29,245 nucleotides of DNA from a virus (lineage: Duplodnaviria > Heunggongvirae > Uroviricota > Caudoviricetes), in the IMG/VR virus record IMGVR_UViG_2778261122_000007, positions 1 through 29,245 of that record; one strand, written 5' to 3'. Made by a program: the position numbers and the translations under genes. Below are positions 9,421-10,427 of the stretch, piece after piece. The notes under the pieces are model-generated. The model saw only the letters and a program-made list of their open reading frames with translations. It ran no database searches and was not told the origin of the DNA. How positions within the stretch are numbered: position 1 is the stretch's first letter; every line of letters starts with the position of its first letter.

Positions 9421-9485
9421 AAGGCATATATTTCATGCAAATCTGATATTTTGCCGATTTTGTACGTGATGGCAAAAGCAAACAA

Positions 9486-9511
9486 AACCCGCCCACAAGC
9501 GGGTTTTTTTG
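9486..9511 (+). terminator. rho-independent terminator after Q (tR'-like candidate)
   Basis: AAACCCGC-CCACAA-GCGGGTTT hairpin followed by a T7 run. Confidence 0.7.
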
Positions 9512-9630
9512 TGCCACTTATCTCGGATAGACATGGTGAATGCGCTGGTGGAGGAAGTAAGGGTAATTTTTAACCAGGTGATTCTTGAATGCTTGCAACA
9601 TTGATTTCGTAACGTTATTATCCTGCGCCC

Positions 9631-9706
9631 GGCCCTTTAGCTCAGTGGTGAGAGCGAGCGACTCATAATCGCCAGGTCGCTGGTTCAAATCCAGCAAGGG
9701 CCACCA
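9631..9706 (+). tRNA. tRNA with CAU anticodon, Ile2 (lysidine) type, ileX/ileZ-like
   Basis: Manual cloverleaf: acceptor GGCCCTT/AAGGGCC, anticodon arm GCGACTCATAATCGC, T-loop TTCAAAT, encoded CCA; very close to my recollection of E. coli ileX. Confidence 0.8.
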
Positions 9707-9707
9707 A

Positions 9708-9784
9708 CCGCCACTAGCTCATCAGGAAAGAGCGTCAACCCTTTAAGTTGAGTGTGCGAGGTTCGAGTCCCCGGTGGCGGTCCA
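9708..9784 (+). tRNA. tRNA-like gene, anticodon loop CCUUUAA (apparent anticodon UUU, Lys); non-canonical C33 and an A-C mismatch in the T-stem
   Basis: Manual fold: acceptor CCGCCAC/GTGGCGG, D-arm GCTC/GAGC, anticodon stem TCAAC/GTTGA, T-loop TTCGAGT, encoded CCA. Identity is uncertain; it could be a degenerate or specialised tRNA. Confidence 0.5.
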
Positions 9785-9786
9785 GT

Positions 9787-9862
9787 GCCGACTTAGCTCA
9801 GTAGGTAGAGCAACTGACTTGTAATCAGTAGGTCACCAGTTCGATTCCGGTAGTCGGCACCA
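9787..9862 (+). tRNA. tRNA-Thr (UGU)-like
   Basis: Manual fold: acceptor GCCGACT/AGTCGGC, anticodon stem ACTGA/TCAGT with loop CTTGTAA, T-loop TTCGATT, encoded CCA; acceptor ends resemble E. coli thrU; one A-C mismatch in the T-stem. Confidence 0.65.
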
Positions 9863-9865
9863 TAT

Positions 9866-9940
9866 GCGGGCATCGTATAATGGCTATTACCTCAGCCTTC
9901 CAAGCTGATGATGCGGGTTCGATTCCCGCTGCCCGCTCCA
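9866..9940 (+). tRNA. tRNA-Gly (UCC), glyT-like
   Basis: Manual fold: acceptor GCGGGCA/TGCCCGC, anticodon stem TCAGC/GCTGA with loop CTTCCAA, T-arm GCGGG-TTCGATT-CCCGC, encoded CCA; appears essentially identical to E. coli glyT as I recall it. Confidence 0.8.
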
Positions 9941-10283
9941 GCAAAACGGATGAGGTACAGGTTTTTCAGCACTGGCGTTTTCTCGTGGGGAATGGTCTCT
10001 TCAATATATTGATTGGAACCCCAAACTATAACTGAGGCCAGATATAGTTTCAGTGCTGTGTTTTTTGACAACAGTGGAATAGGGCATTGTCAGTAGGCGT
10101 TTAGCGTTTTTAGAAACTGATTAGGCACTACTCCGGTGTTGTTAACACCATCCAATGAGGTGAACTCTTGTGCGGAGGTGGTTTCATACGTTGTCTGACG
10201 GGAAACCTCGTATCTGGTGTAGGGGCAGATATTTCGGGTGAATCCCGACACCTCAAATATAAAAGATGTATCTACATGCTTTT

Positions 10284-10309
10284 AGCCGCCGCTCCGGCGG
10301 CTTTTTTTA
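10284..10309 (+). terminator. rho-independent terminator between the tRNA cluster and the lysis genes
   Basis: AGCCGCC-GCTCC-GGCGGCT hairpin followed by TTTTTTT. Confidence 0.65.
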
Positions 10310-10427
10310 TTCATGCTGACTTCCTTCATTGTTAGTTATGGTGTTCTAAGGACTTTCTGTAACTGCATTTTCCCTGCACAAATTATTCATATTAACTACG
10401 CCATCCGTTATTTGCGGAGGTGAGGCT

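Follow-up and report, generated by a model that had tools for sequence, protein, structure and literature searches.

Gene content of the interval between Q and the lysis genes

The window analysed here, i.e. the whole stretch of 29,245 nucleotides of the Caudoviricetes record IMGVR_UViG_2778261122_000007, carries on its plus strand the late-gene antiterminator gene Q (8731-9420) and, further on, a lysis cassette (10428-11601) with the first of the late genes. Q encodes 229 amino acids from its ATG, or 231 if an upstream GTG at 8725 is taken as the start, and matches Pfam family PF06323 (E = 5.6e-91, 304.6 bits), known as the Q82 family (PMC9388147). The protein is 76% identical to the Q of phage 82 (X92588); since it differs at 24% of its residues, the prophage is not phage 82 itself. 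A sequence search of the PDB with Q returned no relative, the sole match being a spurious one to a phage lysin (19.7 bits), and because no PDB relative is found by sequence Q is neither a Q-lambda nor a Q21. Q82 is the one Q family for which no solved structure is known. The lysis cassette, recognised by PF04971, PF00959 and PF03245, consists of an S21-type holin S with a dual start (MKSM; 10428-10643), the endolysin R (10643-11140) and Rz (11125-11601).

Between the Q stop at 9420 and the S start at 10428 lie 1007 nt, which contain four tRNA genes placed between two strong intrinsic terminators (9486-9511 and 10284-10309) and no other credible gene. The RefSeq annotation of a locus 99.4% identical to this one likewise gives four tRNAs and no CDS, so that the untranslated gap of about 1 kb reported in the initial annotation is real. 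In this region E. coli ChlosBP-23-1 and TUM14697 match the present prophage at 99.3-99.4% identity. Small ORFs at 9451-9573, 9880-10035 and 10168-10335 were rejected as genes, being unannotated in RefSeq and overlapping tRNA or RNA elements.

At both terminators, which the initial annotation had placed correctly, 5-8 GC-rich pairs are followed by a T7 tract. The first, tR', has the stem CCCGC (9488-9492) / GCGGG (9499-9503), flanked by AAAA and T7 (9504-9510), with a folding energy of -15.9 kcal/mol (z = -4.5) that none of 200 shuffled sequences equalled. The stem of the second, AGCCGCCG (10284-10291) / CGGCGGCT (10295-10302), precedes T7 at 10303-10309 and folds with -14.9 kcal/mol (z = -3.5), equalled by one shuffle in 200. 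A simple scan gave tR' in its minus-strand form only, because the hairpin is symmetric; for the same reason it is potentially bidirectional. Rfam matches at this hairpin to the Phe, Trp and Leu leaders and to OrzO-P were dismissed. Terminator-like sites in the region number 4, against 1.2 +/- 1.3 expected from shuffles.

Putative late promoter, pause element and terminator behind Q

A promoter scan places pR', a sigma70 promoter of the phage 82 type, at 9404-9432 on the plus strand, overlapping the 3' end of Q, and both sequence and comparison support this assignment. The -35 hexamer TTGCAA (9404-9409) lies within the last Q codons, and TTGCAA stands at the corresponding position near the end of the phage 82 Q gene, in its 3' part; a spacer of 17 bp (9410-9426) leads to the -10 hexamer TATATT (9427-9432). 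The Q-binding element (QBE) of the 82 promoter is located between -35 and -10 (PMC4914094), and the spacer is a candidate for it here, assigned from its position only.

According to PMC5001585, the 82 promoter shows slippage at the start and a pause at +25, where the last nucleotide is U; it also has an extended -10-like element and GCC at +15-17. If A9439, in an AAA run, is taken as the probable late start site, all of these published features fit the initial transcribed region at 9439-9463: a putative sigma70-dependent pause element of the extended -10-like type, TGaTATTTT, at 9444-9452 (+6 to +14), then GCC at 9453-9455 (+15-17), an AT-rich stretch at +19-23 and a predicted pause at +25, T9463. 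What is matched is a description in words, together with family-wide conservation, and not the literal sequence, because X92588 stops at the Q stop codon. The combined promoter and pause motif has a single occurrence in the window, and a search for Q82-type pause elements across the window found none except 9444-9452. For this prophage, the start sites, the pause, the dependence on Q and the efficiency of the terminators are predictions read from its sequence.

The comparison drew on 29 usable loci of the Q82 family, from Kluyvera, Citrobacter, Raoultella, Klebsiella and other genera, whose Q proteins are 57-93% identical. Promoter and pause element are present in 29/29, the hexamers being conserved throughout, with the consensus TTGcAaAA-(spacer)-tAtaTTT-...-aaaTcTGATATnnT; TGATATnnT is retained in all aligned loci but one (28/29), the exception, L017, having AGATAT. 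The conservation of TTGCAA is not attributable to pR' alone, because the hexamer shares bases with conserved Q codons (A226, K227) and with a possible CII site. A hairpin-plus-T-tract search scored a terminator at +28 to +93 in 27 of the 29 loci, with unrelated stem sequences, and the two without a scored one (L021 and L025) have a GC hairpin whose T-tract is interrupted. The set yields a clean promoter and pause consensus for the Q82 family, which could aid template design. As a separate observation, the Q/pR' region is 98.5% identical in the O157 prophage PPompW.

It is scarcely conceivable that the two hairpins arose by chance or serve only as DNA structure, without a part in transcription. 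The one point in favour of this is a general one, that scans by consensus tend to call too many sites; both hairpins fold far better than shuffled sequences, the first-position terminator is scored in 27 of the 29 loci although its sequences differ, and a second-position terminator recurs in every mosaic variant examined.

The initial annotation had left two options: the first hairpin could be tR', with the tRNAs carried by the antiterminated transcript, or pR' could lie after the tRNAs. The former is strongly supported, for an 82-type pR' with its pause element (9404-9463) follows a Q82-family Q, here as throughout the family, and 9486-9511 stands where the Q82-type cassette has its downstream terminator. 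Late transcription would thus, in all likelihood, start directly after Q and carry the tRNAs on a Q-antiterminated transcript.

The terminated pR' RNA, from 9439 to about 9510, is predicted to be about 70 nt long. Short pR' RNAs, such as lambda 6S RNA, StxS and IsrK, are a known by-product of switches of this kind (PMC7547250), and in Gifsy-1 IsrK comes directly after a Q82-family Q. Compared with Rfam, the corresponding region (9436-9509) scores 22.7 bits with isrK (RF01394; gathering score 50) and 24.5 bits with isrJ (RF01393; gathering score 37), below both thresholds, and the relation to these RNAs is positional only.

The tRNA array and the structured element beyond it

ARAGORN finds four tRNAs on the plus strand, all scoring above the gathering score of RF00005 (29 bits): tRNA-Ile2/Met(CAU) at 9631-9706 (72.5 bits), which is identical to ileZ of 933W and is called tRNA-Ile by PGAP; an argN-derived tRNA-'Lys'(UUU) with C33 at 9708-9784 (44.4 bits); tRNA-Thr(UGU) at 9787-9862 (73.8 bits); and tRNA-Gly(UCC) at 9866-9940 (64.9 bits). 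A Plastid-ycf2 match of Rfam on the minus strand of the tRNAs was set aside as chance or as a reverse-strand tRNA echo. The AGA, ACA, GGA and AUA codons are used even more by the early genes of this prophage than by its late genes.

Directly upstream of the array, the promoter scan and homology to 933W identify pT (9593-9630, plus strand), with a -35 hexamer TTGCAA (9593-9598), a 17-bp spacer and a -10 hexamer TATTAT (9616-9621), followed by a GC-rich discriminator, cctGCGCCC, that ends at the first base of the tRNA. GC-rich discriminators are typical of tRNA promoters. The homologous site of 933W, annotated as 'pT; putative tRNA promoter' (GenBank AF125520, 21082-21110), reads TTGCAG-17-TATTAT-cctgcgccc, against TTGCAA-17-TATTAT-cctgcgccc here, directly upstream of ileZ. 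In Sp5, the Stx2 prophage of strain Sakai, dRNA-seq mapped a primary start between tR' and stx2AB, at the position of pT, which drives the tRNAs (PMC7547250). Because a promoter homologous to the 933W pT is present and a start has been mapped in the Sakai Stx2 prophage, the tRNAs are probably expressed both with and without Q, i.e. constitutively and with a boost from Q. The array most likely has a Q-independent promoter, so its tRNAs should pre-exist in the lysogen at induction.

A purely Q-dependent array, in which the hexamers of pT were non-functional and the tRNA precursors came from pR' read-through alone, is decidedly improbable. It is true that pT agrees with the consensus at only 9/12 positions, that the tRNAs do sit on the antiterminated transcript, and that in one member of the family (L023) the tRNA directly adjoins tR', leaving a promoter no space, so that a phage tRNA fed purely by read-through exists. 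Yet both hexamers, and the distance between them, are preserved in five contexts in which flanks and spacer sequence diverge (in L005 pT deviates, with TTGATT at -35 and a 16-bp spacer), the discriminator is of the kind seen in tRNA promoters, the Sakai start lies at the homologous position, and homology to phage PhiR47_1, which has an unrelated Q, begins exactly at 9593, the first base of the -35 element. The two options are therefore incomplete, and the statement that the choice between them decides the Q-dependence of the tRNAs is too simple, since the array has a pT-homologous promoter.

Beyond the array, the plus-strand segment 10132-10312, which ends in the second terminator, matches the STnc100 model RF02076 over its full length (model 1-206) with 35.4 bits and E = 9e-6, short of the gathering score of 47, and appears to be a diverged structured RNA element of the STnc100/PasD type. 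Its relative in locus L004 also matches full-length (27.6 bits), the 933W copy scores 207.7 bits, and the element has sequence blocks in common with the true STnc100 of 933W. Its placement is that of a late-region STnc100 in a lambdoid prophage, with the terminator 119 nt upstream of S. A manA-II match (29.8 bits; gathering score 100) and the mir-983, VqmR and Qrr matches in L004 were dismissed on the same grounds as the Plastid-ycf2 match. A hairpin at 10031-10054 was rejected as a terminator of the tRNA operon, being weak, lost in L004 and L005, and altered there by non-compensatory substitutions. No relative of 10040-10394 was found in the phage collection.

It is on this side of the array that a late promoter would have to lie under the second option, with a start at about 10060-10130, 10284-10309 as tR', the STnc100-like RNA as the short late transcript, and the tRNAs outside Q control. 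The element is indeed terminator-ended and, at 181 nt, close to lambda 6S RNA in length; a TTGACA hexamer occurs at 10065-10070, and synteny has been reported between PasD relatives of STnc100 and the Q genes of a different family, PF03589. This arrangement is nonetheless very unlikely and finds no support in the scans, for no usable -10 stands 15-18 bp from the TTGACA hexamer, and promoter-like sites and pause elements on the plus strand of 9941-10427 number zero. A plus-strand promoter-like site was likewise absent between 10310 and 10428 in the promoter scan, and the alignment with L004 and L005 revealed no conserved hexamer pair after the tRNAs. The only Q82-type pause element is the one behind Q, and the cognate unit of promoter, pause and terminator adjoins Q, as throughout the Q82 family. 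In 933W, moreover, the true STnc100 is found 75 nt beyond stx2B, well away from Q and pR', and 9942-10393 is a rare mosaic insert (4/5426 E. coli genomes) whereas the part from Q to the tRNAs is common.

A more serious contender, though one that falls short of being probable, is that 10132-10312 is, as for other copies of STnc100/PasD, an independent gene for an Hfq-binding sRNA with its own promoter, the terminator being that of the sRNA and not of the tRNA operon; shielding of S would still be possible. STnc100 copies are transcribed in uninduced EDL933, one of them confirmed by northern blot (PMC5331693), RpoD is reported to bind at STnc100 promoters in Salmonella LT2 (PMC10794520), and PasD and STnc100 have been described as Hfq-associated prophage sRNAs. 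Against it stand the Rfam score, which is under the gathering threshold, and the absence of a promoter-like site upstream of 10132, sought here and in L004 and L005. A further point against it is that between tRNA-Gly and the element there is no conserved terminator, the hairpin at 10031-10054 not being kept in L004; hence transcripts from pT should run into the element.

There is also a speculative reading, which I consider unlikely. The STnc100/PasD-like RNA, having no promoter of its own, might be the 3' trailer of the pT-driven tRNA operon, released in the lysogen by tRNA processing as an Hfq-type sRNA that ends at the second terminator; after induction the Q-modified polymerase would ignore that terminator, and the same DNA would no longer give the discrete sRNA but feed the lysis genes. 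Were this true, Q would toggle a tRNA-linked regulatory RNA besides the late genes.

As to the second terminator itself, the mosaic alternatives in L006, 933W and L023 each separate the tRNA(s) from the gene that follows by a terminator. It can be explained without pT, because the tRNA of L023 lies behind tR' with no promoter room and a terminator still follows. As part of the explanation set out below, the second terminator very probably insulates S-R-Rz; the lack of a plus-strand promoter-like site between it and S speaks for this, as does the transcription of STnc100 copies in uninduced EDL933 (PMC5331693).

A probable late-gene switch built from known modules

The explanation preferred here, which I hold to be very probable as a whole, is that the gap represents the usual region of late-gene control in an E. 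coli prophage resembling phage 82. RNA polymerase would start constitutively at pR' (about 9439), right behind Q; sigma70 would re-bind the extended -10-like element (+6 to +14), and the polymerase would pause near +25. Without Q, transcription would end at tR' (9486-9511), leaving the RNA of about 70 nt. With Q, bound between -35 and -10 and loaded onto the paused complex, the polymerase would become terminator-resistant and continue past tR', through the tRNAs and past the second terminator, to transcribe S-R-Rz together with the structural genes. The four tRNAs would be an inserted module with its own sigma70 promoter, pT (9593-9621), and as such would be made in the lysogen and further raised by Q read-through. 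The second terminator would stop pT transcripts, and any leak past tR', ahead of the holin and endolysin genes. The either/or of the initial annotation is thereby settled for this prophage from sequence and comparison alone, and the region has a known architecture: its modules are known ones, and together they make up a lambdoid late region of the textbook kind.

The closest model is the phage 82 cassette, with which the locus shares the Q family (76% identity), a promoter overlapping the 3' end of Q, an intrinsic terminator a few tens of nt downstream and, by the published description, the pause element, GCC at +15-17, U at +25 and the A-run at the start. It differs from phages 82 and 434 in the putative QBE spacer, aagtagattgaaaggca here against aactggattaaaag..., and from phage 82 in the tRNA module downstream of tR', of which no mention was found in the phage 82 literature consulted.

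In 933W and Sakai Sp5 the order is Q933 - pR' - tR' - pT - ileZ argN argO - terminator - stx2AB - STnc100 - ... - S R. In common with the present locus are a late promoter, terminator(s), pT, an array that starts with the identical ileZ and is followed by a terminator, an element of the STnc100 type ahead of the lysis genes, and a lysis cassette of the S21/Qin type. Unlike here, the Q of 933W has been grouped with the Q21 family (bioRxiv 10.1101/651190) and comes with its own pR' and the 258-nt StxS RNA; the present prophage lacks the stx operon, its tRNA set is Ile-'Lys'-Thr-Gly instead of Ile-Arg-Arg, and its STnc100-like element is strongly diverged (35 vs 208 bits).

Along the same line, lambda 6S RNA, StxS and Gifsy-1 IsrK all stem from a constitutive promoter adjoining Q with a terminator nearby, and given that arrangement an abundant short RNA is predicted in lysogens here as well, although the RNA of about 70 nt stays below both Rfam gathering scores for isrK and isrJ.

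Finally, the unit of pT, tRNAs and terminator resembles the phage morons, i.e. units of promoter, gene and terminator in late operons, in its sharp homology borders (9593 and 9941) and in its occurrence behind different Q families. It departs from them in that its cargo is tRNA and not a protein gene, and in that its terminator part can in turn be exchanged, further joints lying at 10255/10256 and 10393/10394.

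Predicted late promoter, pause element and first terminator

A lambdoid E. coli prophage makes up the window, and the chromosome of strain ChlosBP-23-1 carries a 99.4%-identical locus. Downstream of a DUF968 gene and rusA lies Q (8731-9420), followed, after a gap of 1007 nt for which the RefSeq annotation has no protein gene, by the S21-type holin gene (10428-10643), the endolysin gene R and Rz. A 179-aa ORF (12029-12568, minus strand) lies between Rz and the HNH/terminase region, within the late operon. Q matches PF06323 (E = 5.6e-91), the family called Q82 by Yin et al. 2022 (PMC9388147), who distinguish three Q families unrelated to one another; phage 82 Q (X92588) is 76% identical to it across all 229 residues. 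A search of solved structures by sequence gave no relative of Q, which is what a Q distinct from both Q-lambda and Q21 should give.

At the very end of Q, the promoter scan found a sigma70-type promoter, with TTGCAA at 9404-9409 (within the last Q codons), a 17-bp spacer and TATATT at 9427-9432; if transcription starts at A9439 (+1), the initial transcribed region is AAATCTGATATTTTGCCGATTTTGT. For 82 pR', the late promoter of phage 82, Bird, Strobel and Roberts (PMC5001585) describe a -10-like pause element with an extended -10 motif and a closer fit to consensus than in lambda, a GCC resembling a discriminator at +15-17, AT-rich sequence ahead of the pause, a pause at +25/+26 with U as the wild-type terminal base and, as cited there, slippage at the start. 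In the same numbering, the window has TG-a-TATTTT at +6 to +14, GCC at +15-17, ATTTT at +19-23 and T9463 at +25, and its transcript begins AAA; judged from sequence, each feature of 82 pR', compared by description, sits at its published position. The -10 plus TGATAT combined motif occurs once in the 29-kb window. In X92588, which ends at the Q stop codon, the 3' end of Q contains TTGCAA at the position it has in the window.

The initial annotation had placed a terminator hairpin on either side of the tRNAs, and both were recovered: the first, CCCGC/GCGGG with A4 and T7 on its flanks, at 9484-9510 (dG -15.9 kcal/mol, z = -4.5), and the second, AGCCGCCG/CGGCGGCT followed by T7, at 10284-10309 (dG -14.9 kcal/mol, z = -3.5). 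The putative pR', pause element and tR', the first terminator, can be placed with high confidence at 9404-9511, and this placement predicts a short, terminated pR' RNA of ~70 nt. Wells et al. (PMC4914094) locate the Q-binding element of 82 pR' in the stretch that separates the -35 from the -10 element, so that by its position the spacer 9410-9426 is the candidate for it.

A scan with one genome per species gave 31 loci with a Q82-family gene, the product being 57-93% identical to the window Q. They are from Escherichia, Shigella, Kluyvera, Citrobacter, Raoultella, Klebsiella, Leclercia, Atlantibacter, Phytobacter and others; two were left out, L038 for an automated Q-frame read that ended early and L016 for a misplaced alignment anchor. 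All 29 loci used share one consensus across the Q stop codon, gt.TTGcAaAA-(spacer)-tAtaTTTc.tg.aaaTcTGATATnnTg.C, and 27 of them have a GC-rich hairpin with a T-tract at +28 to +93, the GC hairpin being present and the T-tract interrupted in the remaining two (L021 and L025). The stems are unrelated among loci (CCCGCC.., GCCTCGCC.., GCCCGAGG.., GCCAGCC..); the predicted terminator at the tR' position is conserved in function, not in sequence. Phage 434, whose Q is called 'Q82-like' in the curated record, has the same layout with an annotated terminator.

Other elements were observed in the same stretch. TTGC-N6-TTGC (9396-9409, minus strand) fits the CII-binding consensus and overlaps the pR' -35, TTGCAA being palindromic; in the Q82-like gene of phage 434, the curated record marks a CII site and the paQ -35 at the corresponding position. 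The pR' leader RNA has a hairpin (9449-9477, +11 to +39, UUUUGCC/GGCAAAA) between pause element and tR', as do, among loci L010-L037, the long-leader Q82-family ones at the same position with other arms (UGCCA/UGGCA, GUCG/CGAC, GCUGCC/GGCGGC); short-leader loci are without it. Just downstream of tR', at 9544-9551, lies a Chi site (GCTGGTGG) kept in loci L005 and L010 despite diverged flanks; of the Chi sites in the window, 12 are on the plus strand and 3 on the minus strand, a strong bias toward the direction of late transcription.

Transcription of the tRNA array

The array comprises tRNA Ile2/Met-CAU (9631-9706), 'Lys'-UUU (9708-9784), Thr-UGU (9787-9862) and Gly-UCC (9866-9940). The initial annotation had left a choice between tRNAs on the antiterminated transcript behind tR' and a pR' located after the tRNAs. 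With pR' and tR' at 9404-9511, the former is strongly supported: the tRNAs would lie on the Q-antiterminated transcript. The choice itself was incomplete, for a Q-independent tRNA promoter, pT, is very probably present too, given its conservation, the annotation of the Stx2 phage 933W and the primary 5' ends mapped in strain Sakai by Sy et al. (PMC7547250). The promoter scan found this second promoter-like site at 9593-9621 (TTGCAA, 17 bp, TATTAT, GC-rich discriminator cctGCGCCC), ending 9 nt before the first tRNA; the 933W GenBank record labels the homologous site, upstream of an identical ileZ, 'pT; putative tRNA promoter', and annotates terminators both before and after the array. Hexamers and spacing are kept in five contexts with different flanks and largely different spacers (window type, PhiR47_1, 933W, L010, and L005 with TTGATT and a 16-bp spacer). 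Homology to PhiR47_1, whose gene set between Q and the tRNAs differs, starts exactly at the first base of the pT -35.

Genes through Q (1-9420) use the codons of the phage tRNAs more heavily than the late genes (10428-29245), with 9.2 vs 7.1 per thousand for AGA, 17.6 vs 9.5 for ACA, 16.7 vs 13.9 for GGA and 10.6 vs 6.2 for AUA, which fits a supply of tRNAs that is not delayed until Q acts. In a Scandinavium locus (L023, 3690-3935), the order is tR', tRNA-Arg(UCU), its own terminator, holin, endolysin and Rz; the tRNA, beginning 6 nt beyond the T-tract of tR', leaves no space for a promoter and appears to be fed purely by read-through.

The best-scoring promoter-like site of the region (9854-9881, TCGGCA-16-TATAAT, 10/12 positions) spans the tRNA-Thr/tRNA-Gly junction and is probably fortuitous, its TATAAT being the D-arm of tRNA-Gly. 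The second tRNA has an argN-type body and the anticodon loop CCUUUAA (C33, anticodon UUU), and scores 44 bits against the tRNA model; its relative in L010 has the loop CUUCUAA (Arg UCU). The UUU variant occurs widely; its putative identity, from PGAP, is tRNA-Lys. Prophages of pig ETEC (L004, 3038-3143) have a degenerate second argN-type copy, 75% identical and with a weak tmRNA-model match (19 bits), between two terminators, downstream of an STnc100-like element.

The STnc100-like element and the second terminator

Over its entire length, the 181-nt stretch that ends at 10312 matches Rfam STnc100 (E = 9e-6), at 35.4 bits, which is below the gathering score of 47 and so falls short of formal membership. 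It has TTGTTAA, GGTGAA, GTGCGGAGG and CGGG-N5-CCCG-CACC in common with the true STnc100 of 933W (207.7 bits), which lies 75 nt after stx2B and does not adjoin Q. The L004 relative, with a different terminator at its end, matches STnc100 over its full length (27.6 bits). As described in bioRxiv 10.64898/2026.05.13.724894, STnc100 and its PasD relatives are prophage small RNAs between Q and the holin-lysozyme genes; several STnc100 copies are transcribed in uninduced EDL933 (PMC5331693).

Homology blocks break at sharp mosaic joints, 9941/9942, 10255/10256 and 10393/10394, the second inside the element, so that its 5' two-thirds and its terminator part differ in history. The block from Q to the tRNAs is common; segment 9942-10393, taken exactly, was present in only 4 of the 5426 complete E. 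coli genomes and absent from the phage records.

Neither the promoter scan nor alignment with relatives gave a promoter for the element in the window, and from 10310 to the start codon of S there is no plus-strand promoter. As no conserved terminator was found between tRNA-Gly and the element, pT transcripts should run into it. In every mosaic alternative examined, a terminator separates the tRNA(s) from the gene that follows: in L006 it lies 69 nt before S, in 933W before stx2A and in L023 before the holin gene. The most economical reading is that the second hairpin would halt pT-driven transcripts, together with leak past tR', before the lysis genes, and that Q-modified polymerase from pR' would pass it; a fail-safe role would be independent of pT, because L023 has the second terminator without pT. 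It is conceivable, if rather unlikely, that the phage tRNA operon has the STnc100-like RNA as its 3' trailer, which would be lost as a discrete RNA upon Q read-through.

Relation to known systems

The question raised by the initial annotation is answerable and the finding real; the locus is an ordinary combination of known modules, with some novelty only in the reading of the STnc100-like RNA as a tRNA-operon trailer. The predicted short pR' RNA has positional analogues in lambda 6S RNA, StxS and Gifsy-1 IsrK, the last likewise directly after a Q82-family Q, yet it scores 22.7 bits against the isrK model (gathering score 50). In Gifsy-1 (L041, 3178-3400), IsrK (79 bits) lies behind a TTGACA-17-TATATT promoter, with a C4-type antisense RNA and an antirepressor-like gene downstream, and the initial transcribed region is without the TGATAT element of other Q82-family members.

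As far as it is known here from its sequence, the locus would work like the phage 82 late cassette, with which it agrees at every sequence-level point tested. It also repeats the layout of tRNA module and flanking terminators of 933W and the Sakai prophage Sp5, annotated in 1999 and partly verified by dRNA-seq, but places this module behind a Q of another family and without stx genes.
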